A DNA stretch of 64,000 nt from the NCBI GenBank assembly GCA_965242965.1, contig OZ251518.1, forward strand, positions 2,848,001-2,912,000, read 5' to 3'. The stretch's first letter is position 1; each line of letters begins with the position of its first letter. Position numbers and translations under genes: made by a program. This DNA comes from Candidatus Poribacteria bacterium (lineage in GTDB: Bacteria > Poribacteria > WGA-4E > WGA-3G). Under the pieces are notes generated by a model, which was not told where the DNA came from, searched no databases, and saw only the letters and a list, made by a program, of their open reading frames with translations. Shown one piece after another: positions 2,522-34,337 of the stretch.

Positions 2522-2534
2522 TGTGCGTTCTGCC

Positions 2535-17403: not shown

Positions 17404-18336
17404 CTACTCTTTCTCTGGCAGCAAGAAAGCTTCTACGCTAAAGTGGAAGCGTATTGTCTCCGTTTCAAGAGAGCCTTGCTTCCGGAGCAAATTGCTGATG
17501 TTTTTGAGCCTTTCAAGCGAACGTTCCGCTGTTTGAATCATTTCAGCATACTTTTGGGCATCCGTCTCTTTCATTACCTGAAGTTGCAGTTCTGTCAACT
17601 CAATCACCTCGGGATAGGTGGCTTTCTTCTTCGGTGCGAGAGCGAGCACGGTGTCAACTATTTTTTCAACGAGCGGATGTTCACCATATTGCAAGGCGAG
17701 TAGCGCGACCAGTTCAGCCCGTGCCGCTTCTGCATCCGTGTCGCGAAGTTTTTCAAAAGCCGCTGCATGCTTGCGCCCTAACCGAAGCACCTCTGCATCT
17801 GTGCCGTGAAGTTTTTCAAAAGCCGCTACATGCTTGCGCGCCAACCGAAGCACCTCGCTCTTGCTCGCCGGGACAGGTTTTTCCACGTCGGTTTTCGGCG
17901 CGTGACTGTGGTGATGCAACGCTTTTTCCATAGCGGCGAACCGTTGGAATGCCTCTTGGTGACGATGTATCTGGACCGAATACTTTTTGACATTGATCTT
18001 CGTTAGCATTCGGATTTCTAATTCAGACACCCGTTTCACATCCGAAGGATGCTCCGTTCCGTTCTGGCTAATGCGGAAGTAGAGCGGCACCCATTCTTCG
18101 GCGAGGCGATGTCCGCCAAACAAGGTGTTGGCAACCTGTTGAAGTTCGGCGCGTGCCGCTTTCGCATCCGTAGCGAGGAGTTCTTGAAAGCGTGTCAGTT
18201 CCTCACCCCAAAGCGTATTGCTGACGAGGCTGAGTTGCGGGGGCACAGTTTCTGAGGTGTCTTCTAACTCACCAAAAGAAAACGTTCCGAGCGTGCAAAG
18301 GACCAGGCATAGCAGGTTCATGATTCCAAATCGCAT
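17404..18336 (-). CDS. Secreted helical hypothetical protein (family Y, paralog of 19664-20518)
   Basis: AAGGAGG RBS, signal peptide; LFGGH.LAEEWVPLYFRIS..G.EH.SDVKRVSELEIRMLT shared with 19664-20518; 21-aa tandem repeat. Confidence 0.85.
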   Translation of the reverse strand: MRFGIMNLLCLVLCTLGTFSFGELEDTSETVPPQLSLVSNTLWGEELTRFQELLATDAKAARAELQQVANTLFGGHRLAEEWVPLYFRISQNGTEHPSDVKRVSELEIRMLTKINVKKYSVQIHRHQEAFQRFAAMEKALHHHSHAPKTDVEKPVPASKSEVLRLARKHVAAFEKLHGTDAEVLRLGRKHAAAFEKLRDTDAEAARAELVALLALQYGEHPLVEKIVDTVLALAPKKKATYPEVIELTELQLQVMKETDAQKYAEMIQTAERSLERLKNISNLLRKQGSLETETIRFHFSVEAFLLPEKE

Positions 18337-18406
18337 GAGAAACCTCCTTGTGAAAAGGCAGGGCGCGCTTTTCGGCGTTAAAGGCACCCCGCTACTCCTC
18401 ACGATT

Positions 18407-18830
18407 TTTCAGATACCCCAGTCTAAAGACTGGGGATTGTATTCCTTTTAGAGGACACGTTCTCCAGCGACTGGCGGCTTTGCGTTTCGTAGAGGTTGGC
18501 AACCCAACGCTCTCCACGCGACCCCTCAGCAGGGTCAAGAGTGTTATTTGTATCTGGTAGGTGTTTTTGAACAGCGATTATCTCCCTCGCATCAGGTCCC
18601 GTTTCGTCGGTATTGGCTTGCGTATTATTTCACGTCGCACCAAGCAGCGACGGTGGACTGCGTTGTTCACTCGAACGCAGCATTCACACTCAAACCTAGC
18701 AGACTGGTATAGATTATACCACATTTTTCAACCGAATGCAAATCTTTTTTTCTCATGTTTGCACTGACAAAAGAGGGCGGACTTTCCTCCCCAGACCCGT
18801 ATGGGGTTTCCAGTCCGTAAATTTAGATGA
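18407..18830 (-). mobile_element. Non-coding IS200/IS605-like mini-element with internal promoter and omegaRNA-like 3' end
   Basis: Subterminal hairpins CCCCAGTCTAAAGACTGGGG and CGGACT..CCCCA..TGGGG..AGTCCG; minus-strand GCGTGGAGAG...CTCTACGAAACGC; no ORF; TTGCAT-17-TATAAT promoter. Confidence 0.6.
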
Positions 18831-18888
18831 AGATGGACACACGTATCCACAAGACCGCGGGTGGCCGTGAAATACGATGGCACAATCT

Positions 18889-19629
18889 TCATCTGATATC
18901 GCGTCCGTAATTGAGTTGGATAGTAGCCCCCTCTTCAAGGGCTAATTGTTTGATTTCGTGGAGATATGCCAGATGATCAGCGACTATCTGCACCCCTTCA
19001 GGGGCAACAAGCCCGTGCATGAGCCGCAAAAACGCGCTTGTGTTGTCAATAGCATCGTCAATTGTGGCGGTGCCATCATTGAAACGGCTAAAGGTTTCAA
19101 CGAGAATATCGACATCCGGCGAATCCCCATATTGCTCCCGAAATGCCTCGTCTAAGCGTTGATAGGCATAACCCGGGTCTGTTTCCAGATAGGCATTGTA
19201 ATCATCAAATCCCGCTTGGACCTTCGCCATGTCGTAGGGAACCTCCGGTTCGCTCTCCATGAAGTCTTCGGGTTCAAGTAAATCCCCATCTGTTTCTTCG
19301 ATAAACAGGTAGGGGGGCTCATCAAGCGGTGCCGATGGCGGTTCTTCGGCAACCGAGGCAATTTCTGCAAGTCCGGCGGCATCGGTTTCGGTGTTGTCCG
19401 ATTCGGCTGTCCACCGCGATGTTTCGGAAACCGATAAGGCGGCGGTCTGGGTGCGCTCCTGGCGTGTCCGTTCGGAAGGGCCGGCGGTGTCTACCGGGGG
19501 AACTTCGGGCAGCGATGCGTTAAACCGCTTTAATTCCCATCGTTCGTAAACAAAAAAGCCAGCACAGATAAGGACGGCTAGGAGGAGCGCGCCGCCGATA
19601 ATACCGAGATTCTGTCGTCGCAATTTCAT
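18889..19629 (-). CDS. Membrane-anchored hypothetical protein (family X)
   Basis: AAGGAG RBS; TM followed by WELKRFNASLPEVP; C-terminal half closely similar to 16292-17044. Confidence 0.85.
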   Translation of the reverse strand: MKLRRQNLGIIGGALLLAVLICAGFFVYERWELKRFNASLPEVPPVDTAGPSERTRQERTQTAALSVSETSRWTAESDNTETDAAGLAEIASVAEEPPSAPLDEPPYLFIEETDGDLLEPEDFMESEPEVPYDMAKVQAGFDDYNAYLETDPGYAYQRLDEAFREQYGDSPDVDILVETFSRFNDGTATIDDAIDNTSAFLRLMHGLVAPEGVQIVADHLAYLHEIKQLALEEGATIQLNYGRDIR

Positions 19630-19663
19630 GTCGTTCTCCTTTCAGATTGGGGCGGCCCCTGTA

Positions 19664-20518
19664 TTATTTCCCAGATAAAGAAATATTGAACGGCGTTTTC
19701 TGCGCCAGTTTGCCTTGGCGTTCCAGCAGTTTGCTCAGTGCCTTGAGCTGCTTCAAGCCGGACGTAAGTCCTGCAATCTGCTCTGCCTCCCTTTCAGGTG
19801 CCGTGTCTTTCAGCATCTGTATGTGCCACTCCGTCAACTGGATGAGCTCTGGAAAAGTGGCTTCCTTCTCACGAGACAGGCGGAAAAACAGTTCAATCCA
19901 CCCTTCTTTGAGCGGGTGCTCGCCAAACATGAGCGACGCGAATGCAGCCAACTCCGTGCGTGCGGATTTCATATCCGTGAAGAGGTATTCCTCAAAGGCA
20001 GCGGCATGGGCGTTCATCTGCTCAATACGCAAGGCAGTCGCTGCATCTCGCATTTTTGTCCGTTCGCCGGGGGAGTGTTTTTCAAGGAGTAACTCTCCAG
20101 TGTCACCGACTTTCGCCAGAGTGTCAAGGCGTTCAAGTGCTTCTCGGTGGCGTTGTATCTGTTTCGCATATTTCGCCGCATTGATAGCTGTCAGCATGCG
20201 GATTTCCAATTCAGATACACGTTTGACATCCGAAAGATGTTCGCTCCCCTCACGGGAGATGCGGAAATAGAGGGGCACCCATTCTTCCGCGAGCGGATGT
20301 CCACCGAACAGCGTTCCTGCAACGCTTTGGAGTTCAGCGCGCGCCGTTTCCGGTTCGGTGCGGAGCAGTTCCCAAAACGTTTGGAGCGGCTCCGTCCAAA
20401 TCGTCTTGTTTATCCGGTAAGTGGGTGCGTGCCGGTGCGACTCGGGGGCAGCGGCACTTTCCGTTAAGAAACTGACTATTAGCAGCGCGATTATCGCACT
20501 AAAAACGGTCCCTTTCAT
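19664..20518 (-). CDS. Secreted helical hypothetical protein (family Y)
   Basis: AAAGGAG RBS, signal peptide MKGTVFSA...; two ARxEL...FG.HPL...W..L.FR units. Confidence 0.85.
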   Translation of the reverse strand: MKGTVFSAIIALLIVSFLTESAAAPESHRHAPTYRINKTIWTEPLQTFWELLRTEPETARAELQSVAGTLFGGHPLAEEWVPLYFRISREGSEHLSDVKRVSELEIRMLTAINAAKYAKQIQRHREALERLDTLAKVGDTGELLLEKHSPGERTKMRDAATALRIEQMNAHAAAFEEYLFTDMKSARTELAAFASLMFGEHPLKEGWIELFFRLSREKEATFPELIQLTEWHIQMLKDTAPEREAEQIAGLTSGLKQLKALSKLLERQGKLAQKTPFNISLSGK

Positions 20519-20775
20519 TTTTTCTCTCCTTTGACACCTTAAGGGTGCCTTGATTTTCTTCTCGCACGCCGGATTCCTTTCTGTCTCGCGTGTTTTGAGG
20601 TGAGCATACTTGCATCGAGACCAGGAGGTCTCTCCTACCGGCATGCACTTGGTAACAAAGCGTGGAGGTGAGCATGCCCCCCTGCCGAGCTGTATATCCT
20701 GTGAGTGTGCTGTCTTTCCTTGAGAAGGCAGCAGTCACACGGGACAGACCGGCACGCTTTTCTATAAACTATTGT

Positions 20776-20791
20776 AGCAAGTTCCGTGCCA
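20776..20791 (-). promoter_or_regulatory. Sigma54 -24/-12 promoter for the Y-X-Y-X-X genes
   Basis: TGGCACGGAACTTGCT matches the TGGCAC-N5-TTGC consensus. Confidence 0.85.
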
Positions 20792-20834
20792 AAACCGACA
20801 TATCGCTTAGATACGGGCGCCTTGCCATTTGCGC

Positions 20835-20893
20835 ACTGGGACAAAATGACACTATTGATACCTTTTTGCCCATAACTGGGTAAAAATGACCTA
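20835..20893. promoter_or_regulatory. Putative upstream activator (EBP-binding) sites
   Basis: ACTGGGACAAAATGAC and ACTGGGTAAAAATGAC 40 bp apart, with an inverted weaker copy (TGGGCAAAAAGG) midway. Confidence 0.6.
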
Positions 20894-20954
20894 GTGCCAA
20901 CTCAGCATCGCGCACCGTTTCGCCGCGCCGCGTGGCTCAGCAGAAAACTTACTT

Positions 20955-21304
20955 GAGGGTGTTTCATAAATTTATCCCCCTTGGGAGGCGAGCGAATACC
21001 GATAGAAAAGCGAGGGCGTGCATCGGGCCCACCTCTGTAGTTCGGGAGCGCCCGCTCCCGAACGGTCAAGATCGCTTGGCAAACATGCCAGAACTTCAGA
21101 CGATCTTGCCCTACAGGGGTGATGCAGTCTGACAGCCAAACGCATGGTGAGGGAAACCCGCTCGGATGCGCGGGTGGCATCCGAGGGCCCTCGCCCTACG
21201 GGGAAGGGGACTGTTTTTTACCGTAGCGCGGGGGCCTGTCCCCCGCGATCGCAGCATGGCGAGGGGGTTTCACCGCAACGTTGAGTGATTTATGAAACAC
21301 CCTC
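20955..21304. mobile_element. MITE-like element with TIRs carrying REP units
   Basis: GAGGGTGTTTCATAAAT ... ATTTATGAAACACCCTC. Confidence 0.8.
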
Positions 21305-23315
21305 AATTAAATGCCCGGATAACCTTCACTAACAATCTTTGTCTGAATTCAATAGCGTTCGGATCTCCGAGGATGATGAAAAAGTCGGTGCCGGCATAAC
21401 CGGAACGCCGGAGTGCGAAATAGATGTTCACCCCTTCCGCTTGCCATATCAGCCGACTGCCAAGGCTTAACGCCGGGCTGAAGTCATACGTCAGTGTTAA
21501 AATCTGTTGATACCGCTGCTCAAAATGCCACTGGATTTGGGTGGTAAAGCCCGCCGTGAACCCGTAAGCGCGGAGATTGAGATTTCCGCTGATGCGATGA
21601 AGCCGTTCACCAGCCTGCTCTCCACCTGCATAATTGATACTGACATTGTTAAACCGGTCTGAAGTCCGGATGCCCAAACCGATTGTGAAAACGCTATCGG
21701 TGAATTCTTCAAATCGGCCACCGTTCCAATGGACAGAAAGGGAGTAATCGCTGTGCGTCAAAAGGCTCGCGTATGCCGAAACGCTCCGCCGGAAAACCTC
21801 CCCTTCGTCAGTGTTCGATGCTTCGGACAGGACAGAGAGAAGTGCATTGCGTAGAAATCCTTCGCGCCATTCGTTACGGAGCCATCCACCGAGACTTGCG
21901 CCGCGATACCCGGTAAACGGATGATAGCCGAGATGATTGACGAAATCCGCGGCGGTAAAAAAGGCGGAAAGGTAGGCAAACCCCACCCCGCCGTTGTAAC
22001 TGAAAGCGGCATATCCCGAACTGCCATCGGATTCGCCTGCCCAACTTTGTGCAAAGTTTCCTTGTAGAGAAAACTTCCCCTGGCGCACGTTCCCCGAGAA
22101 ATAGCCAACGTTGTTTGATGACACTTCTCGCTGGTTGTATGACAGCAACGCCGCGCTGATAGTGGATGTAGCCGAAAACGACTGGGACGCGCGGAGAATC
22201 ACGTTCTGGTTATTTCGATGATAGGTGCCTAATGTCCCCACGGATGTGTTTTTACCGATTTTCCCGAAGAGGTTCAGCCCGCCATCCATGTCTACTATCC
22301 GCCGCGAATGGAAATAACTACCGAGACGATAGACATTGCCCCCTTCCAAAAAGAAGGGCCGCCGGTCTGACACGTAGCGTTCACCGTAGGAGAAGTCTAT
22401 CCCTTCCACAGCCTGCTCAAGGTTCTCAAAATCGGGGTTGGCAGTGCCGATGAGCCGGAGCTGCGGTGTTACTTCAAAGCGAAGATTGCCGCCGGCACGC
22501 GCCGTGTATGTCCGTTCTTCTGTCTCGCTGATGCCGCCGATGAGATACGGCAAGAACTTCACCTCCCGTTTGCGCGGCGGCGGCAGCACGTCTATCCAAT
22601 GTCCATCGTTTTCACGGAACTCCTGTAGCCCTAGGTTGCACCACCACGAACGTTCGCCGGTGCGCTGTTGCAACCTGTCAACGTTAATCCCCATCCGAAT
22701 AGGCTTCGTTGTATTCGGATAATCCAACATCTGCCAGGGGATTTCCATTTCAACAACCCATCCATCTGCTACGATTTGCGCGGCGACGTTCCAAAGTCCG
22801 ATCCACTCGCTTTTCTCAGCGCGCCCGGTGGCGAGGTGTGCATATTTCGTGCCGAGGGGATTCGCCATGAAGAAGTTCCTATCGCCGAATTGGTGCGTAT
22901 GGAACGCATCAATGCTGAACGACACCCAGTCTTCGTCGCGGATGCGCGCCTGGTCCTTCGTCTGGCGTGCCACGATTTTATCAGGCATCTCGTCAGAGAG
23001 ATGGAGCCCGACGTAGATGGCTTTGTCCGTGTAAACGAGCCGGAAGACGGACTGATTTCTCGCTGGTTTTTCGGTGCGTTCATCGGTGAAACCCACGCCT
23101 CGCGGTGCATCTTGCCAACAGGTATCGTCAAGAATCCCATCTATCATCGGTGGCTGTGCGGTTTTGTGTGCAGGAAGTTGTTTTTGAACCGTTTGTTCTC
23201 TATCGGGACGCGAGAGCCCACCTACCGGTTCGGGACTAGAACCCTCTCCTACAGCTGCAATGGCGGTGAGGTGGCATAGAGAAAGCCCGATGAGCAGGGG
23301 CATCATGAATCTCAT
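21303..23315 (-). CDS. CBM9/DOMON-like plus DUF5916-like outer-membrane protein
   Basis: Signal peptide; PMIDGILDD..W, GWVVEMEIPW, ANPDF, DRRPFFLEG, FHSRRI; amphipathic beta-strand C-terminal half. Confidence 0.8.
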   Translation of the reverse strand: MRFMMPLLIGLSLCHLTAIAAVGEGSSPEPVGGLSRPDREQTVQKQLPAHKTAQPPMIDGILDDTCWQDAPRGVGFTDERTEKPARNQSVFRLVYTDKAIYVGLHLSDEMPDKIVARQTKDQARIRDEDWVSFSIDAFHTHQFGDRNFFMANPLGTKYAHLATGRAEKSEWIGLWNVAAQIVADGWVVEMEIPWQMLDYPNTTKPIRMGINVDRLQQRTGERSWWCNLGLQEFRENDGHWIDVLPPPRKREVKFLPYLIGGISETEERTYTARAGGNLRFEVTPQLRLIGTANPDFENLEQAVEGIDFSYGERYVSDRRPFFLEGGNVYRLGSYFHSRRIVDMDGGLNLFGKIGKNTSVGTLGTYHRNNQNVILRASQSFSATSTISAALLSYNQREVSSNNVGYFSGNVRQGKFSLQGNFAQSWAGESDGSSGYAAFSYNGGVGFAYLSAFFTAADFVNHLGYHPFTGYRGASLGGWLRNEWREGFLRNALLSVLSEASNTDEGEVFRRSVSAYASLLTHSDYSLSVHWNGGRFEEFTDSVFTIGLGIRTSDRFNNVSINYAGGEQAGERLHRISGNLNLRAYGFTAGFTTQIQWHFEQRYQQILTLTYDFSPALSLGSRLIWQAEGVNIYFALRRSGYAGTDFFIILGDPNAIEFRQRLLVKVIRAFN

Positions 23316-24388
23316 GCATCTTCCTCCTGAAACATTCTCAATTTGCTGCGCAAAGTCGGACGGCTCACGTCTAAAACCGCGGCGGTTTGCGCCTGATTGC
23401 CATCCAGCCGCGCGAGGGTTTCTAAAATGTATATCTTCTCTACCTGCTTCAAGGTTAACCCCACCGGGATGGCCACGGTAGGTTGGTTTTGCGATGTAAG
23501 CATTGACTGGCCCGGGTCAGGTGCATAAAGTTTTTTCGGTAAATGCTCCGGTAAGATAAGGTTCCCTTCCGAAAGGATGAGTGCGTAAGTGACGCTCTTT
23601 TTGAGTTCTCGGATATTTCCGGGCCAGGCGTAATCTTGAAGGAGCTGGAACGTTTGTGCGGCGAATCTGCCTACCGGTTCATCGGTAGTCGGATGGGGCG
23701 CGTGCGCCTTTAACCGTTCGCTTAGTGGTGGCAGCCGCATAGAAAACCGCGTGAGTTGCGGCGGCTCTTGTGAGAAGTGTTCCACGAGCTCACGGATATC
23801 CTCTTTCCGTTCGCGCAGCGGCGGCAGCGAAATAGAAAACCCCTCAAGTCGATGATAGAGGTCCTCCCGAAATTCGCCTTCGTGAACGGCTTGTTCTAAG
23901 TTGCGGTTGGTTGCGGCGAGAATTCGGACATCCACCGGAATCGGTGCTTTGCCGCCGAGGCGTTCCACCTCGCCTTCCTCCAGCGCGCGCAGCAACTTCG
24001 GTTGGAGTGACAGGGGCAAATCGCCGATTTCATCAAGGAACAGTGTCCCCTTGTCGGCGCGTTCAAACTTCCCAATCCGCTGCTGCTTCGCATCGGTAAA
24101 GGCACCCTGTTCATACCCAAACAGTTCGCTCTCAACGAGGCTCTCCTGAAGCGTCGTGCAGTTGACGACGACGAGCGGCCCCGTTGCGCGGGGGCTGTTG
24201 GTATGTAGGGCGCGTGCTACTAACTCCTTGCCTGTCCCTGTTTCACCGTAAATCATCACGGGGACATCGTGTCTTGCTAGCAACTCAATCTTTTTTAGGA
24301 CTTCAAGAATCTGTGGGCTGCTGCCGATGATGGCACTGTAATCTCCATCTAATGAATCTCTTGTCCTCTCGGCTGTTTTGCGCTGCAT
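23312..24388 (-). CDS. Sigma54-dependent enhancer-binding activator without N-terminal sensor
   Basis: GETGTGKE, ESELFG, GAFTDA, LFLDEIGD, WPGNIREL, Fis HTH; ATGA overlap with the downstream gene. Confidence 0.93.
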   Translation of the reverse strand: MQRKTAERTRDSLDGDYSAIIGSSPQILEVLKKIELLARHDVPVMIYGETGTGKELVARALHTNSPRATGPLVVVNCTTLQESLVESELFGYEQGAFTDAKQQRIGKFERADKGTLFLDEIGDLPLSLQPKLLRALEEGEVERLGGKAPIPVDVRILAATNRNLEQAVHEGEFREDLYHRLEGFSISLPPLRERKEDIRELVEHFSQEPPQLTRFSMRLPPLSERLKAHAPHPTTDEPVGRFAAQTFQLLQDYAWPGNIRELKKSVTYALILSEGNLILPEHLPKKLYAPDPGQSMLTSQNQPTVAIPVGLTLKQVEKIYILETLARLDGNQAQTAAVLDVSRPTLRSKLRMFQEEDA

Positions 24389-24434
24389 GTTATCGTCCTT
24401 TCATGCCTAACGGCACTGTTATATCAAATTACGT

Positions 24435-25004
24435 CAGGGTGTTTCATAAATCGCTCAATGTTGCGGTGAAACCCGCTCGGATGCGCGTGTGGCATCCGAG
24501 GGCCCCGCGCTACGGTAAAAAAACGCTTTCCCTTCACGTAGGGCGAGGGCCTGTCCCTCGCCATGCTTGATTGCCGCTTTCACCGTAGGGCGAGGGCCTG
24601 TCCCTCGCCATGCACCGGGCTGAGCCGCAAACATCCGGGGTCTCTGGGCTGCGGACGTTTTCCACAGCGGTTGAGAGATCGCGGGGGACAGGCCCCCGCG
24701 CTACGGTAACAAATAAGAAATCGTCACCGTTTACCGTAGGGCGAGGGCCCTCGCATGCCACACGCGCATGCGAGAGGGTTTCCCTCGCCATGCCGAAGGT
24801 CTGTAAGACCTTAATGTCTATAGCATCCTGCACCGCAGCGCACCCTAAGGTCCTTTAGGTCCTTAATGTGCCTTGACTCCCTTGGCTGCCGCTTGATTAA
24901 GGTCCTAGCGGACCTTGAAAACAGTGGCATGTCTGTTTTTCTATAGACATTTAGGTCTTAAAAGACCTAAAGAGGCATCCATAACGGATTTATGAAACAC
25001 CCTC
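24435..25004. mobile_element. MITE with TIRs and a perfect 9-bp target-site duplication
   Basis: AAATTACGT at 24426-24434 and 25005-25013 flank CAGGGTGTTTCATAAAT...ATTTATGAAACACCCTC. Confidence 0.88.
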
Positions 25005-25064
25005 AAATTACGTTGAACGAACCCGCCGGCAGACTCCTGGCATTTGCATCTGGCCTGTTTCGTC

Positions 25065-27185
25065 TCAATCCAAACCGGTTGCAACCAGAGTGATGCGCAC
25101 CAACTCTTCGGTTTGCAATTCATCGTTGTAGGAAAGCCCGAAGATAACTTGGGCATCCGATGCGGCATTCTGGATAACCTGCATCGCGCTATCCAATTCC
25201 GCCATCATGAAATCCTGTGGCGCGACAACTTCTACCAGCAGACCGGAGGCTTTGGCGAGATTCGCGCCTTCGAGAAGCGGCGAAGAAACGGCGGATTCAG
25301 CCGCGATGCGCCCGCGCTCCTCTCCCACCGCCTGTCCGATGCCCATCGCCGTCCGCCCTGGAACCCGTAAGACAGATTCAACATCGGCGAAGCCAACGCT
25401 AACCTCATGCTCGGCATTTACGATGTTCCCGGTGATGAGTTGAACGCCTCGGATGAGGAGTTCATCGCTAACGCGGAAAACCTCCTGAGTCCGTTTGACA
25501 CTTGTGCCAGAACTTTCGGCAATCGCGTCCCCTTCGTCAATCAGGTGTTGGTTGCCGACAACGATGAGGGAATCTGCAGCGGTTCGGAGTGCTTTCACGC
25601 CGTTTTCGGCTTGCGCCGCGCGCTGCTCTCCCTCAGCATGGAAAGGCAAGGTTACCATCGCAACGGTTAATACGCCGTATCTGCGAGCGAGCGATGCGAT
25701 ACGCGGTGCTGCAACGGTGCCGGTGCCGCCGCCCATGCCAGCAACGATGATAACCATGTCCGCATCCGAGACGAGGGTTTCCAATGCCACGCTATCTTCC
25801 TCCGCTGCCTCTCGTCCAACTTCCGAATTGCCTCTGGCACCAACCCCTTTGGTGGCTTTCTGCCCAATCTGGATTGGTGTGATATCGTCGTAGGCATCCA
25901 AGGCACCGCTGTCGGTGTCAACCGCATAAAATTCAAGTCCGGTTAACCCGGCTTCACGCATGCGATTGACAGCCTTTCCGCCGCCGCCTCCGACACCGAT
26001 AATCTTCACGGTGACAGGTGTCGCCTTCAATTTCATCGGCATGATGAGATAAGTCTGTCCCGATTCACCTACCGGTTCCGCAACTGCCGGATTTAATTCC
26101 CCAGAGCACTTCAGTTGGATACTTTCGGTATCCAGATGCGAGAGTGCCTCCATCAACAACCGCGCATCAAACCCAATCCGCAGGTTTTTCGTGCAAGAAT
26201 CGACAGAGACGGTTTCGTGTGCTCTGCCGAGCCCCGGGGTCTTCGCCGAAAGCCGAATGTTCTTTTCCGGCTCGTTGATTTCCAAGCAGATGGCACAGCC
26301 TTTTTTCAGTTCCGATAACAGGGAGATGCGGCGCACCGCCTGCAGCATCGTCTCGCGCTTGAATACGGTGCGGACTTGCATCGCCCCGGGTTTCGGGATA
26401 ATCTTCTCGTAGTCCGGGTATTCATCATCTATCAAGCGCGCTGTCAGCGTGGTGCGCTCATCGGCGATGCTCAGACACCGCGTCGGGTTAAACGGTTCGC
26501 TGCTCTGGAAGAACGAAACGTTCACCGAGTCCGCATCGGCGAAAATTTGGGGGATGGCTTGCACCGCCTTGAGCGGCACAATGAACCCTGTCACCCCTTC
26601 CGGCGGTGTCAGCGCATCACAGCGCACCAGCGCGAGCTGCCGGCCATCAGTTGCAACTACCTCCGTCCTATCGCCAAGGAAGTTAAAATAGAGCCCGCAC
26701 AGCATTTTCCGCTTTTCTTCCTCGGTGGATGCTGCGAATGCGGTTTTGTGGATAACCTCACGCAGCGTCTGGAGGTGGATGTCCAAAGGCTCTCCCTCAA
26801 ACACGGGGAGCTGTGGGAACTCTGTCGCCGGTAGCCCCACAATGATGAACGTTGGGATGAACGTTGAGGTATCAACGCTGTTCTCACACGTCAACTTCAC
26901 TTGGTTGTTCGCCGGTGTGGTGAGGCGGAGCTCCGAGTCTGGCAGCACCTTGACGATGTCCGTCAGTTTCTTAGCGGGGACGGCAATCGCGCCTTCTTCC
27001 AGAATAGTCCCATCCACCTTAGTGCGAATGCCTACCTCCATGTCCGTGGCGGAGCACTCAATTTTCCCTTCATCCGCCTTGATAAGGACGTTTGAAAGCA
27101 TTGATGAAGGACTGTGCCCATTTGCAACACCCTGCACTATCTGCAGCGAGTGCAAAAGGGGTTCTTTTTGAAACGTTAATTCCAT
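25065..27185 (-). CDS. DNA polymerase III beta-clamp (DnaN)-FtsZ fusion protein, 706 aa
   Basis: About aa 1-385: SATDMEVGI, VPAKKL.DIVK.LP, VATDGRQL, RLID.EYPDY, IGFDARLL, YLIMPM; remainder: KIIGVGGGGG, DTD, AGMGGGTGT, PF..EG, FADV, GIG, SPLLE, IFG, LVATG; GGAG RBS. Confidence 0.92.
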   Translation of the reverse strand: MELTFQKEPLLHSLQIVQGVANGHSPSSMLSNVLIKADEGKIECSATDMEVGIRTKVDGTILEEGAIAVPAKKLTDIVKVLPDSELRLTTPANNQVKLTCENSVDTSTFIPTFIIVGLPATEFPQLPVFEGEPLDIHLQTLREVIHKTAFAASTEEEKRKMLCGLYFNFLGDRTEVVATDGRQLALVRCDALTPPEGVTGFIVPLKAVQAIPQIFADADSVNVSFFQSSEPFNPTRCLSIADERTTLTARLIDDEYPDYEKIIPKPGAMQVRTVFKRETMLQAVRRISLLSELKKGCAICLEINEPEKNIRLSAKTPGLGRAHETVSVDSCTKNLRIGFDARLLMEALSHLDTESIQLKCSGELNPAVAEPVGESGQTYLIMPMKLKATPVTVKIIGVGGGGGKAVNRMREAGLTGLEFYAVDTDSGALDAYDDITPIQIGQKATKGVGARGNSEVGREAAEEDSVALETLVSDADMVIIVAGMGGGTGTVAAPRIASLARRYGVLTVAMVTLPFHAEGEQRAAQAENGVKALRTAADSLIVVGNQHLIDEGDAIAESSGTSVKRTQEVFRVSDELLIRGVQLITGNIVNAEHEVSVGFADVESVLRVPGRTAMGIGQAVGEERGRIAAESAVSSPLLEGANLAKASGLLVEVVAPQDFMMAELDSAMQVIQNAASDAQVIFGLSYNDELQTEELVRITLVATGLD

Positions 27186-27280
27186 TTTGCAAATCTCCTA
27201 TCTCTCTCAAGAGTTATCAACAGAACAATTCTGCTGAGTCCGGCTCAGCAGATGTGCTGTTAGGTTTTACTGAATAGTGT

Positions 27281-27296
27281 TGCAATTTCCGTGCCA
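27281..27296 (-). promoter_or_regulatory. Sigma54 -24/-12 promoter of the dnaN-ftsZ fusion
   Basis: TGGCACGGAAATTGCA about 95 bp upstream of the ATG; GGGACAAAA at 27348-27356 is shared with the other putative UAS. Confidence 0.85.
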
Positions 27297-27409
27297 ACTT
27301 CAAAACCTGCGTAGTTACGGGAGTTTCGCAATTGCGTAACGTAAAATTTTTGTCCCTAGTGGAAAGAATATTGCCATAGCGGCGTTCATTGTGCGCTGTC
27401 CCGTTCTTG

Positions 27410-27968
27410 CCGTAGGAGAGCCCTCCTGGTCTCGATGAGGTTCGTATCGGGACAAGGATGTCCTTCCTACCGGAATCCCTCGGGCCCACCTCTGTAGTTC
27501 GGGAGCGCCCGCTCCCGAACGGGTTAAGCGCGCGGCCGCCTCATCTACCGTAGCGCGGGGGCCTGTCCCCCGCGAGCGTTCGACCCGCGCGAAAAACACA
27601 CGCAAACCAACGCCGTTTCCCCAACCGACGCACGGCGAGGGACAGGCCCTCGCCCTACGGGGAAACGGAAACGGCCTTGCATACCGTAGCGCGGGGGCCT
27701 GTCCCCCGCGAGCGTTCACGTGCCCAGGACTGTAGTTCGGGAGCGCCTGCTCCCGAACGGTTCAGGAGCAGGTGCTCCTGAACTACAGGAGGGATGAGCG
27801 CGCGGCCGCCTCATCTACCGTAGCGCGGGGGCCTGTCCCCCGCGAGCGTTGGGGTGCGCGGGCATGAACGATGGCGAGGGACAGGCCCTCGCCCTACGGT
27901 GAAGTACCGTTTTTTATCGCAGCGCGGGAGCCTGTCACCGCAACGTTGAGCGAGTTATGAAACACCCT
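27410..27968. repeat. REP mosaic ending in a TIR-like TTATGAAACACCCT
   Basis: Multiple GTAG-class palindromes. Confidence 0.85.
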
Positions 27969-28029
27969 AAAATAAAATGCCTCTGGACAAATTCCGCGTT
28001 TGATGGTATCGTATCATGAAGACACGAAA

Positions 28030-30108
28030 ATGAGAAAGGAGAAATGGCAAACCGTGCAAACACTCGCAATTCAGGACAAAACCTACACCAATTCAATAGG
28101 CATGCAGTTCGTGAGAATTGAGCCCGGCAGTTTTCTCATGGGCTCCGAGAACGCGCAACTCCCCGATGAATTAACCGATGGCAAGGCGCACCTCCGCGAT
28201 GGCGATTGGGACGAACATCCCGTGCATCAGGTGACACTCAGCACGCCGTTCTACATGGGCATCTTTCAGGTGACGAACGCGCAATATGAAGCGTTTGACC
28301 CGGGGCACCGGCACCTACGCGGGCTTCCCAATATAGGTTCGCAAACTGCGCCTGACATCGGTTTTTCACGAGAAGATGACGAGGCTGTCGTGTTTGTCAA
28401 CTGGCACGATGCTGTCCGCTTCTGCGAATGGCTCTCCAAACGCGAAGGGAAACCTTACCGGCTTCCGACAGAGGCGGAATGGGAATACGCCTGTCGCGCC
28501 GGCACAACGACGCACTTTTCTACCGGCGATACGCTTCCCGATGCCTTCCATAAAAACGTCGGGGAGAGTTGGTATCCCGATGCCGATAGGAGCCGCGGTG
28601 TTGAAGAAGTGGTGCCGCTGCACGTCGGGCAAACCCCACCGAATCCCTGGGGCCTCTACGATATGCACGGCAATGTAGAGGAATGGTGCCACGATTGGTA
28701 TGGTGCTTATGAAGCGCAGCCGCAGGAAAATCCCGTCGGCAGGGAGGATGGGCTCTATCGTGTCACGCGCGGGGGCAGTCATTCCACGCTGCTTTGCTAT
28801 CTCCGTTCGGCGAATCGGATGGGCGCGGTGCCAGAAGATAAGCATTGGTATATCGGGTTTCGCGTCGTCTGTGGCGCGATGCCGGACACGCCACCGCGCC
28901 GCGTGCCGAAAGTGGCGTTATGGGGACGGAATGTCAATCAAGAGGCACGTGTGGAAGCCGCGCCGCCGGTAGAAACCCCTTTCTTCGCCGAACCGCTCAC
29001 TTATGTGAAAATCCCTGCAGGTTCAAACGGCCCGCTTTTTTCAGCGCACAATCACGTGCCTTCAATCGTGGCGTGCCCGAACGGCGATATGTTCACAGCG
29101 TGGTATTCATGCGTGACAGAACGGGGACGCGAATTGACAGTGGCGGCGAGCCGGTTGCGCCACGGACAAAACGAATGGGAACCAGCAGAACCGTTTTGGG
29201 GAGCCCTCGACAGGAACAATCACGCCACGGCACTCTGGTGCAATGAAAATGGGCGCATCTATCATTTCAACGGGCTATCCGCAGCAGCGACGTGGGGGCC
29301 ACTAGCGTTAGTCATGCGCTATTCCGACGACAACAGCGCGACGTGGACGCGCCCGCGGCTCATCTCACCGGAACATCAGTTGCGGCAGATGCCGATTACG
29401 TCCGTTTTCCGCAGACAAGACAACTCCATCCTGCTCGCATGTGATGCTGTCAGCGGGGGCAACGGCGGCACCGCCATCTGGCTCAGCGAGGACGATGGTG
29501 AAACGTGGCGTGACCCGGGCGCAGGACAGCCTATCCCCGAATTTGCCGCAGGCAAGTGCGGCGCATGGATAGCCGGCATCCACGCCGCTGTCGTTGAATT
29601 GTCAGATGGCCGATTAATGGCTTACGGACGCGGCGATACGATTGGCGGCCGGATGCCGAAGAGTGTCTCTGCCGATGGCGGCAAGACGTGGCGTTATAGC
29701 GCGAGCCCTTTCCCGCCGCTCTCTGGGGGACAACGGTGCGTGCTACTCAGATTGAAGGAAGGCCCGGTCTTCCTCGCCTCTTTTACGGGAGAGCGGGGGA
29801 ACCCGGCGGCGATGCCGATTGTCGATGCATCGGGAAATGAACGTCCGGTGAAAGGGCTATTTGGCGCGCTATCTTTTGACGATGGCGAAACCTGGCCGCA
29901 CATCCGGCTCATCAGCGACGACGGGCCAGACAGGGGACTTGAAACGATGGATGGCAGGCCCTTTACGATGGGATTTAGCAGTGCTGAACTGGGCGGCTAC
30001 CTCGCCGTGTGCCAAGGCAAGGACGGCACTATTCACCTTATCAGCAGCCGACAACATTATCGGTTTAATCTGCCGTGGTTGCAGGAGTTGCCGCCAGCAG
30101 TCGTGTGA
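28030..30108 (+). CDS. FGE-sulfatase (SUMF1-like) domain fused to BNR-repeat sialidase-like domain
   Basis: NSIGM.FV.I.PG.F.MGS, RLPTEAEWEYACRAG, NPWGLYDMHGNV.EWC, IGFRVV; Asp-boxes SDDNSATW, SEDDGETW, SADGGKTW, SFDDGETW; start uncertain. Confidence 0.88.
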   Translation: MRKEKWQTVQTLAIQDKTYTNSIGMQFVRIEPGSFLMGSENAQLPDELTDGKAHLRDGDWDEHPVHQVTLSTPFYMGIFQVTNAQYEAFDPGHRHLRGLPNIGSQTAPDIGFSREDDEAVVFVNWHDAVRFCEWLSKREGKPYRLPTEAEWEYACRAGTTTHFSTGDTLPDAFHKNVGESWYPDADRSRGVEEVVPLHVGQTPPNPWGLYDMHGNVEEWCHDWYGAYEAQPQENPVGREDGLYRVTRGGSHSTLLCYLRSANRMGAVPEDKHWYIGFRVVCGAMPDTPPRRVPKVALWGRNVNQEARVEAAPPVETPFFAEPLTYVKIPAGSNGPLFSAHNHVPSIVACPNGDMFTAWYSCVTERGRELTVAASRLRHGQNEWEPAEPFWGALDRNNHATALWCNENGRIYHFNGLSAAATWGPLALVMRYSDDNSATWTRPRLISPEHQLRQMPITSVFRRQDNSILLACDAVSGGNGGTAIWLSEDDGETWRDPGAGQPIPEFAAGKCGAWIAGIHAAVVELSDGRLMAYGRGDTIGGRMPKSVSADGGKTWRYSASPFPPLSGGQRCVLLRLKEGPVFLASFTGERGNPAAMPIVDASGNERPVKGLFGALSFDDGETWPHIRLISDDGPDRGLETMDGRPFTMGFSSAELGGYLAVCQGKDGTIHLISSRQHYRFNLPWLQELPPAVV

Positions 30109-30175
30109 TGCGCACGCGCGCTTGCACAAAAATCTGAAACGTGGTATCCTATGTGCATCAATCAAGGAGGAAAAA

Positions 30176-31270
30176 ATGAGAACGTTTGGGACGCGGGGCC
30201 CCGTGACACCTGAGCGGCACTACGTTGTCCCGCGCACAAGGGAGCTCGCCGATTTTATCTATCGCCTTAAAGACGGCCGTTACGTTGTCATCTTCGCACC
30301 GAGGCAGACAGGCAAGACAACGTTCTTCCGAACGGCACTAAAGAAGTTGACACTTGAAGAGCCCAGTTATTGTCCAATTGAGCTCAATTTTCAGGTTTAC
30401 AAAAACGTCGCGCCGGCTGCGTTCTATGCCCACCTCTGCCAAAACATGCGGGAGGAAATCGAGAAAGTTTTCCAAAAACGTCAAGAGGCTCTGCCGGACC
30501 CGTTACGCCGTTATTTAGAGGCGGTAAAACTGGCAGACCATCTGGCTATGTTAGATTTCTTTAAACGGCTTGGAGTTCTGCTCGCTCCTCGGCGGTTTGT
30601 CATTATCATTGACGAATTTGACGGCATCCCCTCTGCGATAGTGAGCGATTTTCTGTATTCGCTCCGCCAAACGTATCATATTGCCGAGGAGTCTCGCTGT
30701 CCCTTCAGCGTGGGCATCGTCGGGGTAAAGAATCTGACGCAACTCAACTACGATAGGAGTATCTCGCCGTTCAACATCCAAGATGAGTTCCACTTGCCGA
30801 ACTTCACCCTTGCCCAAGTGACAGAACTCCTTGGACAGTATACGGTGGAAGTCGGACAAACTTTTGCCGCCGAAGTCATTGAGACGCTATATCGGCAGAC
30901 AGCAGGACAGCCGTTCCTCGTCAACCGCCTCGCGCAGATACTCACCGAGGAGATGGACATTCCGAAAACGGAGCCGATTACCTTGGAGGACTTTGCCAAG
31001 GCTCACAAGGCGATTCTGGCGGAAGAGAACGTCAACTTTCACCATGTCACCACCAATATCCGCAAAGACTCGCGATTTGAGAGACTCCTGATGAAAGTTG
31101 CCACCTCTGAGCACGGTATCGACTTCAATCCCCACGATGAACTGATGCGGGAACTTCAAACCTACGGTGTCCTCACACGAGGGGCTGACGGGAAGTGTGA
31201 GATTGTCAACCCGATTTATCAGTATTGCATCATGCAGGCGTTCAAGCCTCCGATAAAGGGTGTTTCATAA
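30176..31270 (+). CDS. AAA-like (AAA_35-type) ATPase, probably 3'-truncated by a MITE
   Basis: AAGGAGG RBS; APRQTGKT, IIIDEFD, SPFNI, GQPFLVN; the last codons (KGVS-stop) come from the TIR AGGGTGTTTCATAA. Confidence 0.8.
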   Translation: MRTFGTRGPVTPERHYVVPRTRELADFIYRLKDGRYVVIFAPRQTGKTTFFRTALKKLTLEEPSYCPIELNFQVYKNVAPAAFYAHLCQNMREEIEKVFQKRQEALPDPLRRYLEAVKLADHLAMLDFFKRLGVLLAPRRFVIIIDEFDGIPSAIVSDFLYSLRQTYHIAEESRCPFSVGIVGVKNLTQLNYDRSISPFNIQDEFHLPNFTLAQVTELLGQYTVEVGQTFAAEVIETLYRQTAGQPFLVNRLAQILTEEMDIPKTEPITLEDFAKAHKAILAEENVNFHHVTTNIRKDSRFERLLMKVATSEHGIDFNPHDELMRELQTYGVLTRGADGKCEIVNPIYQYCIMQAFKPPIKGVS

Positions 31271-32304: not shown

Positions 32305-33195
32305 ATGAAACTTCCGTTTCTACACCATGAAACAGATGTCATCACCGATTTACGCGAGAGCAACGACATCCTTGACAACCCCAACGCACTGCGCGAACGG
32401 ATAACGGAAGAGGGATATCTGCTCATCCGCGGACTACATGAACGGGAAGCGGTTCTGGCCGCGCGGAGGCAGATTCTGGAGAACCTCGCCGAGAAAGGGA
32501 TGCTCGCGCCCAATACACCACTAATGGACGGCGTTTTCAACCCCGATTACCCCGAACCTACCTCCACCGGCTCCATGGGCAATAAGGCGTTGACGCAACT
32601 GCCTGCCTTCAAAGCCGTCGTAGAGGGCGCGCCGGTGATGAACTTCTTCCAGCGGTTCCTCGGCGGCGACGCGCTGACGTTCGATTTCAAATGGCTCCGC
32701 ACGGCAGGCCCCGGCTCAGCATCGCCGATTCATTACGACATCGTCTTCATGGGCAGAGGCACACAAAAACTCTATTCCTGTTGGACTCCCTTCGGCGACG
32801 TGTCGTTAGAGATGGGCCCTGTTGTCTTCTGCCTCGGCTCGAACCGATTTGACAACGTTCGGGAAACGTATGGCAAAGCGGACGTTGACAAAGATCTTAT
32901 TGAAGGGCATTTCAGCGATAATCCGGTCGAAATCGCTGAGAAATTTGGAGGCAACTGGGCGACGACAACTTTCGAGGCAGGCGATGCCATTATTTTCAGC
33001 ATGTTCCTGATGCACGCGTCGCTGCGCAATACATCCAACAAAATCCGCATCACCGCGGACACCCGCTATCAACTCGCGGAAGAACCAGCCGATGAACGCT
33101 GGATAGGTGAAGACCCGAGGGGACACTACGCGTGGAAACAGCAAAACGCGCAAATCGAACCGTTGGCGATTTCCCGACAAAAGTGGGGTGTGTAA
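32305..33195 (+). CDS. Phytanoyl-CoA dioxygenase (PhyH) family protein
   Basis: EEGYLLIRG, HYD, CWTP.GDV...GP, GDAIIF..FLMH.S..N.S.KIR. Confidence 0.88.
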   Translation: MKLPFLHHETDVITDLRESNDILDNPNALRERITEEGYLLIRGLHEREAVLAARRQILENLAEKGMLAPNTPLMDGVFNPDYPEPTSTGSMGNKALTQLPAFKAVVEGAPVMNFFQRFLGGDALTFDFKWLRTAGPGSASPIHYDIVFMGRGTQKLYSCWTPFGDVSLEMGPVVFCLGSNRFDNVRETYGKADVDKDLIEGHFSDNPVEIAEKFGGNWATTTFEAGDAIIFSMFLMHASLRNTSNKIRITADTRYQLAEEPADERWIGEDPRGHYAWKQQNAQIEPLAISRQKWGV

Positions 33196-33214
33196 AGCGG
33201 AAAAAGGAAACGTT

Positions 33215-34291
33215 ATGCAATCAACAACCCGAAACGAACGCCGCACGAATAAGAAAAAATTCATATCGTTCCTGCTGCTCATCGCCGTGGCGGCTGGACT
33301 CGGCTACCTCTTTCGGTATTACAACACAAGACAGCAGGTGGCAACCGGGGGAGCCTGGGCAGTCTACTTTAGCGAAATCCGTCCCGGTGCCCCCGATAAA
33401 AACAACCCTTACTCCCTTGACAAGCGGCTTGTTGCCAAGTTAGAGACTGCTGCTGAAGGGATTGACGCGGCACTTCATCAACTTAATTCTGAGCCGATAG
33501 CGGATGCCTTTATTGACGCGCACCGCCGCGGCGTGCAGGTGCGGGTTGTCACCGAAACTAAGTATCGCGTCGAAAACCAGATCAGACGCTTGCAAGAAGT
33601 CGGCATCCCCGTCGCTGATGATGATGAGCACGATGGGCTGATGCACCACAAATTCATCGTCGTCGATGGACGCTATGTCTGGACAGGTTCCTATAATACC
33701 ACTTTCAACGGCGCATATCGGAACAACAATAATGTCATTTGGCTGGACTCGTCGCAACTCGCCTATAACTTCACGGAGGAGTTTCGCGAAATGTTTCACT
33801 ACCGACAGTTCGGGCGAACTTCAGACCCGAGTGTGCAGTATCCACAGGTGACGTTGGGCGATGGCACGCAGATTTTCACCTATTTCGCACCCGAAAACGA
33901 GACGATTCCGCCGATTTTAAGTGAAATTCAGTCTGCCAAAACGTCTATCCATTTCATGGCGTTTGCGTTTACGCACGATACCCTCGGCGATGCAATGCGG
34001 CGACAGTTTAAAGCAGGTATCGCGGTGCGCGGTGTCTTTGAGGAAAGACAGATTAGTCAGTATTCCGAATACGAACCGATGCGGGAGGCAGGACTGCCGG
34101 TGATTCAAGATAGAACGCGCGGCATGATGCACCACAAGGTAATTGTTATTGACGAAGAGACGGTGATAACCGGTTCCTACAACTTCTCGAAGAATGCTGA
34201 AAAGAACAATAGCGAGAACCTGCTGATTATCAAGGGCAATCGCGACATCGCTCGCGCCTATCTGGACGAATTTGAACGGATAACCCGATGA
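33215..34291 (+). CDS. Phospholipase D-superfamily protein with two HKD motifs, membrane anchored
   Basis: MHHKFIVVD...TGSYN and MHHKVIVID...TGSYNFS; N-terminal TM. Confidence 0.9.
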   Translation: MQSTTRNERRTNKKKFISFLLLIAVAAGLGYLFRYYNTRQQVATGGAWAVYFSEIRPGAPDKNNPYSLDKRLVAKLETAAEGIDAALHQLNSEPIADAFIDAHRRGVQVRVVTETKYRVENQIRRLQEVGIPVADDDEHDGLMHHKFIVVDGRYVWTGSYNTTFNGAYRNNNNVIWLDSSQLAYNFTEEFREMFHYRQFGRTSDPSVQYPQVTLGDGTQIFTYFAPENETIPPILSEIQSAKTSIHFMAFAFTHDTLGDAMRRQFKAGIAVRGVFEERQISQYSEYEPMREAGLPVIQDRTRGMMHHKVIVIDEETVITGSYNFSKNAEKNNSENLLIIKGNRDIARAYLDEFERITR

Positions 34292-34337
34292 AGACAACGT
34301 CTATCAGGGGCTGTCAGGGCAAATTTCTATAGCCACC

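Follow-up and report, generated by a model that had tools for sequence, protein, structure and literature searches.

The stretch of DNA analysed here (64,000 nucleotides; hereafter, the window) derives from a sponge-associated genus of Candidatus Poribacteria and encodes a natural fusion of two proteins, the beta sliding clamp (DnaN) and the GTPase FtsZ. This fusion is an accessory, tail-less FtsZ paralog, here called FtsZ2, that carries a captured duplicate of the beta clamp at its N-terminus. The gene is a single uninterrupted open reading frame (ORF) of 706 amino acids (aa), exactly as had been proposed from the sequence alone (hereafter, the original prediction); it lies on the minus strand (25065..27185) and starts with ATG. 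The hidden Markov model scan that the prediction had suggested found all five expected Pfam domains, each far above its cut-off: three consecutive clamp domains, i.e. DNA_pol3_beta (PF00712; residues 1–127; 67 bits), DNA_pol3_beta_2 (PF02767; residues 137–258; 72.8 bits) and DNA_pol3_beta_3 (PF02768; residues 269–384; 69.7 bits), followed by Tubulin (PF00091; residues 393–550; 135.3 bits) and FtsZ_C (PF12327; residues 610–706; 71.8 bits). The fusion also passes the NCBIfam model dnan (TIGR00663; 235 bits, cut-off 137.65) and does not reach the ftsZ equivalog model (TIGR00065; 275.1 bits, cut-off 295.2).

The two halves meet at ...YLIMPMK-LKATPVT-VKIIGVG..., within the junction-spanning peptide ...IMPMKLKATPVTVK..., and the protein ends with ...LVATGLD-stop; the YLIMPM clamp end, the short linker and the terminal LVATGLD are the same residues as those read in the original prediction. 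The linker junction is conserved in an alignment of nine fused orthologs. In an AlphaFold2 monomer model based on a 103-row alignment (mean predicted local distance difference test score, pLDDT, 86), both halves fold confidently, the linker region (residues 381–390) has a pLDDT of 73, and the only parts modelled with low confidence are the lineage-specific insertions and the T7 region. The predicted template modelling score (pTM) of 0.60 is consistent with two bodies whose mutual position is not fixed by the model. The modelled clamp half superposes on solved clamps with template modelling (TM) scores of 0.88–0.92, and the modelled FtsZ half on solved FtsZ structures with TM scores of 0.86–0.94 (both on target). 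The best solved relative of the FtsZ half is the FtsZ chain 6ym1_A (1.8e-67), and comparison of the fusion model with solved structures yielded no chain covering both halves.

The same architecture is present in independent assemblies. A search of 5.8 billion protein clusters identified 13 clusters (P0001–P0013), all from separate assemblies, that contain all five domains over 100% of the query, with 60–100% identity, lengths of 687–710 aa and an intact frame. The most divergent of these, the 60%-identical P0013, has 21 members located on contigs of up to 311 kb. JGI is not among the sources given for any of the 13 clusters. The junction (around 26010–26030) was also inspected in contigs of four sequencing runs from four studies, two of which bridge it (X10, contig 25738–26701; X5, contig 25904–26099); the X1 and X4 contigs stop at 26033 and were not counted as bridging. 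Two of the checks that the original prediction had named, the architecture in other assemblies and coverage of the junction, thus came out in favour of a genuine gene, the latter through contigs of two further studies. No compositional break hinting at a chimeric join was detected across the gene. Between the genome of the window (G000) and its congener G066, the fused halves have ratios of nonsynonymous to synonymous substitution rates (dN/dS) of 0.238 (clamp) and 0.242 (FtsZ), compared with 0.071 for the stand-alone dnaN and 0.044 for the core of the stand-alone ftsZ of the same genome pair. Both fused halves are therefore under purifying selection that is more relaxed than that acting on the house-keeping copies, and they evolve 3–5 times faster than these copies.

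These data confirm that the fusion is real and not an assembly artefact. A neutral or decaying fusion, or an artefact, without a function of its own might still be read from the narrow distribution of the gene (one genus and one related unbinned lineage), from its faster evolution and from a Val residue in the tubulin signature of the G000 copy (see below). That explanation is already largely refuted and is highly improbable, given the 13 clusters with a frame that stays intact down to 60% identity, the 21 members of P0013 alone with their contigs of up to 311 kb, the junction bridged by runs of two further studies, dN/dS values of about 0.24 in both halves, and the conservation of the promoter and of a neighbouring gene.

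The G000 genome (5.7 Mb in two contigs) contains exactly two Tubulin-domain loci and two clamp loci, i.e. the fusion and one stand-alone copy of each, so that the separate canonical dnaN and ftsZ genes anticipated by the original prediction are indeed present. The stand-alone ftsZ gene (470-aa frame) lies downstream of murG-murC-ftsQ-ftsA in the division and cell wall (dcw) cluster, and its product has a long linker and the C-terminus ...DIPAFLRVQK. The stand-alone dnaN gene (374-aa frame; L098, G000:C1:2741618-2742736) is flanked by DUF6785/DUF6784 and tetratricopeptide repeat (TPR) genes and not by dnaA, recF or gyrB. The clamp half is 63% identical to this DnaN, and the FtsZ half is 53.5% identical to the core of the house-keeping FtsZ. 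The two halves are thus extra paralogs outside the dnaN and dcw contexts, as had been stated, their neighbours being a sigma54 activator gene and an FGE-sulfatase/BNR gene. The dnaN part of that statement requires qualification: the fusion does lie outside the dnaA-dnaN-recF context, but the house-keeping dnaN of G000 itself adjoins neither dnaA nor recF.

The fusion has a very limited distribution. In a scan of 176 genomes of the phylum, which rests on the best 150 of 714 matches (the rest scoring below any two-half match), matches to both halves were found in all three genomes of the window's genus (G000, G066 and G065) and in none of the 173 others. Among the best 150 phmmer matches in 1.84 billion representative proteins, the clamp–FtsZ combination occurred only in the query's own cluster, and a scan of contigs for the architecture elsewhere yielded nothing beyond a Poribacteria contig that is truncated and an unrelated clamp. 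Four other phmmer hits with two matching stretches, the only ones among the best 150, proved to be tandem FtsZ-FtsZ proteins (P0121, P0129, P0139 and P0264; 731–840 aa; from the alga Closterium, Altiarchaeales archaea and others). These resemble the fusion in being multi-module proteins with FtsZ cores and differ from it in having two such cores and no clamp. Stand-alone dnaN paralogs are expanded in the family and often form tandem pairs, with at least six clamp-like matches in some genomes. In G066, a second dnaE and a clamp just 30% identical to the query are located on contig C2 (87316-88086 and 107037-108074), which may be a contaminant or a replicon of its own.

Phylogenetic analysis reveals different histories for the two halves. 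In the DnaN tree (27 rows), the fused clamp halves group together (100/100), with the genus's own stand-alone DnaN as their sister (100/100). After this split, the fused clamp accumulated about 0.47 changes per site and the stand-alone protein about 0.03. The clamp half is thus a recent, fast-evolving duplicate of the house-keeping dnaN gene of the genus. The first 15 residues of the fusion and of the house-keeping DnaN (MELTFQKEPLLHSLQ) are identical, and the leaders of the two genes share TTGATAA...ATAGGAGAnTTTGnAAAATGGAATTAAC; this resemblance shows that the leader accompanied the duplicated dnaN. In the FtsZ tree (27 rows), all FtsZ proteins of the family form one clade (100/100), in which the fused halves do not group with the house-keeping FtsZ of the genus. 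They are instead sister (97/93) to a 308-aa stand-alone, core-only FtsZ of G069, a genome of another genus, within a group of paralogs that has weak support (82/77) and to which sigma-fused forms also belong. The FtsZ half is therefore a member of an older paralog lineage, FtsZ2. The original prediction that both halves are repurposed paralogs is correct in that both are extra copies, but they do not share a history, the clamp being recent and FtsZ2 older.

The G069 locus is syntenic with the window. It contains a divergently transcribed FGE-sulfatase/BNR gene (81% identical) and a downstream activator gene (59%), three further neighbours map to positions 32305–35099 of the window, and its upstream spacer contains two sigma54-like sites. 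We conclude from these features that a tail-less FtsZ paralog, driven by sigma54 and accompanied by its activator, represents the ancestral state, which persists in the genus of G069. In the genus of the window, a second copy of dnaN then came to lie, together with its leader, in frame between the promoter and ftsZ2.

The FtsZ half contains the Tubulin/FtsZ GTPase domain and FtsZ_C, and retains the GTP-binding loops, i.e. the glycine-rich T1 loop and the tubulin signature. It ends at ...ATGLD immediately after the last strand and thus lacks both the linker and the C-terminal peptide, whereas the house-keeping FtsZ proteins of the family have a linker of about 100 residues followed by ...D(I/M)PAFLRVQK. 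An 8-residue insertion is present between H6 and H7 relative to 6ym1_A. The T7 loop reads S-V-G-F-A-D in eight of the nine fused orthologs, compared with the canonical N-V-D-F-A-D; the Asn and the first Asp of this loop contribute to the activation of GTP hydrolysis in the neighbouring subunit. The tubulin signature is GGGTGTV in the window copy and GGGTGTG in all eight other aligned orthologs. Position 25714 is C and not A in the contigs from each of the four runs, so that the codon becomes GGT (Gly). The Val at codon 491 is either a strain-specific change or a consensus error. The subthreshold equivalog score, the missing linker and C-terminal peptide, the altered T7 loop and signature and the location outside the dcw cluster together indicate that this is not an equivalog of the cell-division FtsZ. 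It is a core-only accessory paralog that exists beside a full-length FtsZ in G000, and the whole FtsZ core of the original prediction stands as a core, not as a plain FtsZ.

The clamp half retains the ATDG..L and IMPM motifs, which line the peptide-binding cleft of the clamp. Of the 136 alignment columns without variation among 22 stand-alone clamps of the family, 82 are unchanged in each of the four fused representatives compared. The fused copy thus resembles house-keeping DnaN in its three domains, its NCBIfam score, its degree of identity, its cleft motifs and its modelled fold. It differs in being an extra copy joined to FtsZ that has evolved about 10 times faster since the duplication, with a changed VRYFLNG loop and an insertion in domain II, and is a divergent member of the clamp family. 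The clamp is complete in its domains, as had been predicted, with the qualification that a loop invariant in the 22 stand-alone clamps has been altered.

A sigma54-type promoter core lies upstream of the fusion (Table 1). The G000 genome contains 18 sites with the strict pattern TGGCAC-N5-TTGCW, whereas its base composition predicts 5.6. The TGGCAC-N5-TTGC core does not vary among the upstream regions that could be compared (G000, G066 and G069), and G000 and G066 also have about 70 nucleotides (nt) in common flanking it. An rpoN gene is present in G000, and a gene for a sigma54 activator (bacterial enhancer-binding protein, bEBP) lies directly downstream of the fusion in all three genomes of the genus (85% identity in G066, 94% in G065). 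The spacing, the conservation among orthologs, rpoN and the adjacent activator all point to a sigma54 promoter, in agreement with the original prediction. No orthologs of the bEBP were found at E<=1e-90 in G067, G068, G070 or G077, and G166 has just a 48–52% identical relative. A scan for sigma70 promoters and terminators yielded nothing above shuffled sequences and thus carries no weight for or against co-transcription of the fusion and the bEBP gene.

The bEBP consists only of AAA+ and helix-turn-helix (HTH) domains, with neither a receiver nor a sensor domain. No sensory domain is present in any of the five orthologs and paralogs aligned, and GAFTDA or GAYTDA takes the place of GAFTGA in them. 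Even the highest NCBIfam scores of the bEBP remain well short of all equivalog cut-offs (270.6 against 443.55 for pspF). PspF is a sigma54 activator that likewise has AAA+ and HTH domains only and is controlled in trans by PspA. This domain composition implies that the bEBP is also controlled in trans by a partner protein. It differs from PspF in its subthreshold pspF score and its GAFTDA loop, and no PspA-like gene was seen. Complex prediction for the bEBP and the FtsZ half gave a score of 0.19 against a mark of 0.32, which speaks neither for nor against binding.

We tentatively propose, at somewhat less than even confidence, that the fusion is a conditionally expressed modulator of FtsZ assembly, in which the clamp serves for dimerization and possibly for tethering to DNA, and which acts as a replication- or nucleoid-linked brake or tuner of division. 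The fusion would be made only when the sigma54 activator is switched on by an inducing signal. The clamp half would then form a head-to-tail dimer that may be loaded onto, and encircle, DNA, and the FtsZ2 half would still bind GTP and co-assemble with the house-keeping FtsZ. FtsZ2 would be poor at stimulating hydrolysis and could not be anchored to the membrane. Because it has an altered T7 loop and no C-terminal membrane-anchor peptide, its incorporation would cap or slow FtsZ filaments or sequester them from the membrane, possibly onto replicating DNA. FtsZ mutants with changes in the T7 loop are known to poison filaments. The net effect would be inhibitory, i.e. a conditional brake or tuner of division linked to replication or to the nucleoid. 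We infer that a ring carrying two FtsZ domains could in this way couple replication to division. In favour of the proposal are the retained GTP-binding loops and cleft motifs, the conserved promoter core and adjacent activator, the behaviour of the FtsZ homologs of Agrobacterium tumefaciens and the separate connection of the FtsZ2 lineage with the replisome through DNA polymerase III alpha in sister genera (see below).

Several observations weigh against this proposal. In the clamp half, 54 of the 136 invariant columns are changed in at least one of the four fused representatives. The Y and the N of the VRYFLNG loop are changed in all four, the Arg of the GR(N/T)TLPIL segment is replaced by His in two, and domain II has acquired an 8-residue insertion; with these residues lost, the clamp may be compromised as a ring or in its loading onto DNA. 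At six residues the linker is short, and it leaves the clamp at its C-terminus, on the face used by the clamp loader and polymerases; the FtsZ domains may therefore hinder loading. In the FtsZ half, the ortholog of G066 has T-V-D-F-A-D in the T7 loop and thus keeps the Asp, so that the T7 change is not universal, and the strain of the window may bind GTP less well because of the Val in its tubulin signature. Finally, the ties between FtsZ2 and transcription activators, i.e. the adjacent bEBP and the fusions to sigma factors described below, fit a regulatory role at least as well as a cytoskeletal one.

The closest known parallels to the FtsZ half are the truncated accessory FtsZ proteins. Such paralogs include FtsZm of Magnetospirillum and plastid FtsZ1. 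FtsZ1 of Agrobacterium tumefaciens and its counterparts in other Hyphomicrobiales share with FtsZ2 a tail-less core, a non-canonical gene context and a coexisting full-length FtsZ of the dcw cluster. The fusion differs from them in its N-terminal clamp, sigma54 promoter, dedicated sensor-less activator and altered T7 loop, and its FtsZ belongs to a separate, Poribacteria-specific paralog lineage. The truncated FtsZ1 of A. tumefaciens is reported to inhibit division when continuously expressed (PMC13732431), and the FtsZ homologs of this species to form co-polymers (bioRxiv 10.1101/412759). The words 'fusion', 'fused', 'DnaN' and 'sigma' do not occur in PMC13732431.

As regards the proposed function, a second parallel can be drawn. 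The nucleoid-occlusion proteins SlmA and Noc are FtsZ antagonists that bind DNA sequence-specifically and are unrelated to FtsZ or clamps. If the proposed division brake exists, the fusion would resemble them as a DNA-located factor that hinders FtsZ assembly and blocks division over DNA. It would differ in that its DNA binder would be a topological ring and its antagonist part an FtsZ homolog.

The FtsZ2 lineage also occurs in other chimeric proteins in sister genera. Genes combining an extracytoplasmic function (ECF) sigma factor, FtsZ and a truncated DNA polymerase III alpha subunit (PHP, NTPase and finger regions) were identified in at least 28 sister-genus genomes, with frames of 994–1,439 aa. 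These genes are extra copies beside a normal dnaE, and the full ORFs comprise about 1,350–1,440 aa. Shorter ECF sigma–FtsZ forms (about 551–561 aa) end in the first residues of the PHP domain and are thus remnants of the longer form. In G166 and G154, genes for ECF sigma–DnaN and for ECF sigma fused to the FtsZ N-domain only, sigma-FtsZ(N), are located no more than about 5 kb apart, surrounded by genes for transporters (ABC-2, ABC-exporter and MacB/FtsX). An ortholog of the DUF5916 gene of the window lies near such loci (G166 and G077). The clamps of the sigma–DnaN proteins form two separate clades in the DnaN tree, neither of which is sister to the clamp half of the window. A 371-aa ORF upstream of the sigma–FtsZ genes, considered as a dnaN paralog, was identified by Pfam as a permease. 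Judging from these domain combinations, the FtsZ2 lineage has been joined to a part of the replisome twice independently, to the clamp here and to the polymerase III alpha subunit elsewhere, and has repeatedly become associated with transcription activators.

The latter association raises the possibility, rather unlikely in our view but compatible with the proposed division brake, that FtsZ2 (with its clamp) is a signal-sensing module controlling a transcription factor. It would act in cis on ECF sigma factors in sister genera and in trans, in PspA–PspF style, on the sensor-less bEBP here, reporting the state of replication or division to an envelope-related sigma54 regulon. Such a role agrees with the absence of an N-terminal sensory domain from all five aligned bEBPs, with the side-by-side position of the FtsZ2 and bEBP genes in G069 and in each of the three genomes of the genus, with the joining of FtsZ2-lineage domains to ECF sigma factors (genera g2, g5 and g6) and likewise of clamp paralogs, and with the proximity of the sigma–DnaN and sigma-FtsZ(N) genes in G166 and G154. 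In addition, a DUF5916 ortholog follows the bEBP gene here and sigma-FtsZ(N) in G166 and G077, and a second sigma54 site and a second bEBP paralog surround genes for exported proteins in the window. However, the GTP-binding motifs and the whole FtsZ core are under purifying selection, which mere docking would not require, and the DUF5916 link is absent in G066, G069 and G070.

Sliding clamps are known to participate in transcription. In published reports, the T4 clamp gp45 activates transcription with gp55 and gp33, and phage Mu uses the beta clamp of its host (PMC2988020, PMC7892883 and PMC12867686). These cases provide a precedent for a clamp-to-sigma link, which is relevant to the sigma–DnaN fusions and to control of a transcription factor by FtsZ2. 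They involve separate proteins with short clamp-binding motifs, whereas the protein of the window contains no sigma factor and is fused to FtsZ.

The independent fusion to the polymerase III alpha subunit in at least 28 sister-genus genomes could also be taken to mean that the protein positions or segregates DNA. The clamp ring would encircle DNA, e.g. behind the replication fork, and polymerization or treadmilling of FtsZ2 would move it, by analogy with TubZ, a filament that is linked to DNA through TubR. A topological DNA binder joined to a polymerizing GTPase core by a short, conserved linker would suit this function, and DNA-binding sigma domains are fused to FtsZ2 elsewhere. We nevertheless consider it quite improbable, since the ancestral or sister form works without a DNA-binding module, expression appears to be sigma54-conditional and not constitutive, the alteration of T7 in eight of nine orthologs argues against a robustly cycling filament, and residues invariant in stand-alone clamps have been changed.

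The transporter genes around the sigma–DnaN and sigma-FtsZ(N) loci bear on a further explanation, in which divergent copies of the clamp, FtsZ and the polymerase III alpha subunit are decoys that titrate or sense phage or natural-product inhibitors in the sponge holobiont. Extra DnaN copies conferring self-resistance to DnaN-targeting antibiotics are a known theme; a report on mycoplanecins (PMC10817943), which came up in this connection, does not mention self-resistance in the opening of its abstract. The many clamp paralogs of the family and the altered cleft-lining loop of the fused clamp would be in line with this idea. In the window, however, there is no gene context of biosynthesis or defence. 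Moreover, decoys leave unexplained why the fusion is conserved in frame and its linker constant at six residues, and there is no clear need for joining two targets in one protein; decoys are therefore improbable, even more so than DNA positioning.

Table 1. Features of the clamp–FtsZ fusion locus in the window and examples of related loci in other genomes of the phylum
Feature	Position or locus	Strand	Basis or remarks
Beta sliding-clamp (DnaN) module, aa 1–386, three domains	26028..27185	-	Pfam, NCBIfam, tree, model
Six-residue linker KATPVT, aa 387–392, from clamp IMPMKL to first FtsZ strand VKIIGVG	26010..26027	-	Alignment
FtsZ core, aa 393–706, GTPase domain and FtsZ_C, without linker and C-terminal peptide	25068..26009	-	Pfam, NCBIfam
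Codon 491, GTT (Val), in tubulin signature, giving GGGTGTV	25713..25715	-	Alignment and contigs
5' leader with ribosome-binding site, resembling the house-keeping dnaN leader	27186..27280	-	Side-by-side sequences
Sigma54-type core TGGCAC-GGAAA-TTGCA (-24/-12), TGGCACGGAAATTGCA	27281..27296	-	Sequence; about 95 nt upstream of ATG
Sigma54 activator (bEBP), 358 aa, AAA+ and HTH only, GAFTDA loop	23312..24388	-	Pfam
FGE-sulfatase/BNR gene, divergently transcribed, synteny anchor	28000..30108	+	Pfam; orthologs in G066 (87%) and G069 (81%)
Exported DUF5916/CBM9 protein, 4-nt overlap with the stop of the bEBP gene	21303..23315	-	Pfam, orthologs
GC-rich palindromic REP-like repeats filling the intergenic region	24389..25064	.	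Equivalent in G066 just 163 bp
Second strict sigma54-type site, TGGCACGGAACTTGCT	20776..20791	-	Ahead of exported-protein genes
Stand-alone dnaN paralogs, examples	L016 (G068), L077 (G069), L078 (G077), L036 (G156)		
Sigma–FtsZ–polymerase III alpha, examples	L068:7020-11096 (G166), L069:6621-10901 (G172)		L068 dissected by Pfam
Sigma–DnaN and sigma-FtsZ(N) loci	L094:12265-14037, 7740-8963 (G166); L071:7728-9461, 2194-3411 (G154); L095:7377-8597 (G077)		

The DUF5916/CBM9 protein encoded after the bEBP gene is 70–73% identical to the copies located beside sigma-FtsZ(N) in G166 and G077, which represent two sister genera; identity to the remaining paralogs in G000 does not exceed 30%. Searches for an ortholog in G066, G069 and G068 were negative, and the copy in G070 has no such neighbours. 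It was thus rejected as a conserved partner, because the association holds in G000, G166 and G077 only, and is kept as a hint. Repetitive extragenic palindromic (REP)-like motifs occur in 1663–2126 copies genome-wide and are located in the window at 24468–24793, 27481–27903 and also 21020–21300. Both spacers flanking the fusion are swollen by these repeats in G000, and the insertions are absent from the G066 spacers. Sequencing depth spikes at 24950–25030. The second sigma54 site is followed by ORFs (15350–20644, minus strand) for five exported or membrane-anchored proteins that match no Pfam or NCBIfam family and include two paralog pairs (326/332 aa with 45% identity and 246/250 aa with 59% identity). 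The second sensor-less bEBP (13813–14832, minus strand) is 52% identical to the first, has a GAYTDA loop and has a 75% identical ortholog in G066. A search of positions 20000–30500 against Rfam gave no match at E<=0.1.

In the literature covered, which excludes supplements and subscription journals, we found no natural clamp–FtsZ, sigma–FtsZ or sigma–DnaN fusion, in line with the original prediction, which knew of no characterized fusion. Several of the articles that matched both DnaN and FtsZ track either protein by fluorescence microscopy, as far as their accessible parts indicate. What is new is therefore not the accessory truncated FtsZ paralog, which is of a known kind, but its acquisition of a sliding clamp. 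Evolution has covalently joined the processivity ring of the replisome to an FtsZ core, and the product has been kept under selection. The sister-genus fusions to the polymerase III alpha subunit and to ECF sigma factors suggest that the clamp–FtsZ link is not a one-off accident, and the order of events could be reconstructed, with a stand-alone FtsZ2 under a sigma54 promoter coming first and the clamp being added later.

The coupling of replication to division is a long-standing question, and the known links are indirect, i.e. nucleoid-occlusion proteins, SOS inhibitors and Ter-linkage proteins. A more far-reaching and doubtful interpretation is that the chimeras of Poribacteria form a set that wires together the replisome, the FtsZ cytoskeleton and transcription, in which the ring of the fusion would ride newly made DNA bearing two FtsZ cores that nucleate or capture filaments. 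If true, replication forks would be linked directly and physically to the cytoskeleton of division or segregation, an arrangement with no known counterpart in model bacteria. The fusion also makes accessory FtsZ and clamp paralogs noteworthy as regulatory components in a phylum of symbionts that is uncultured.

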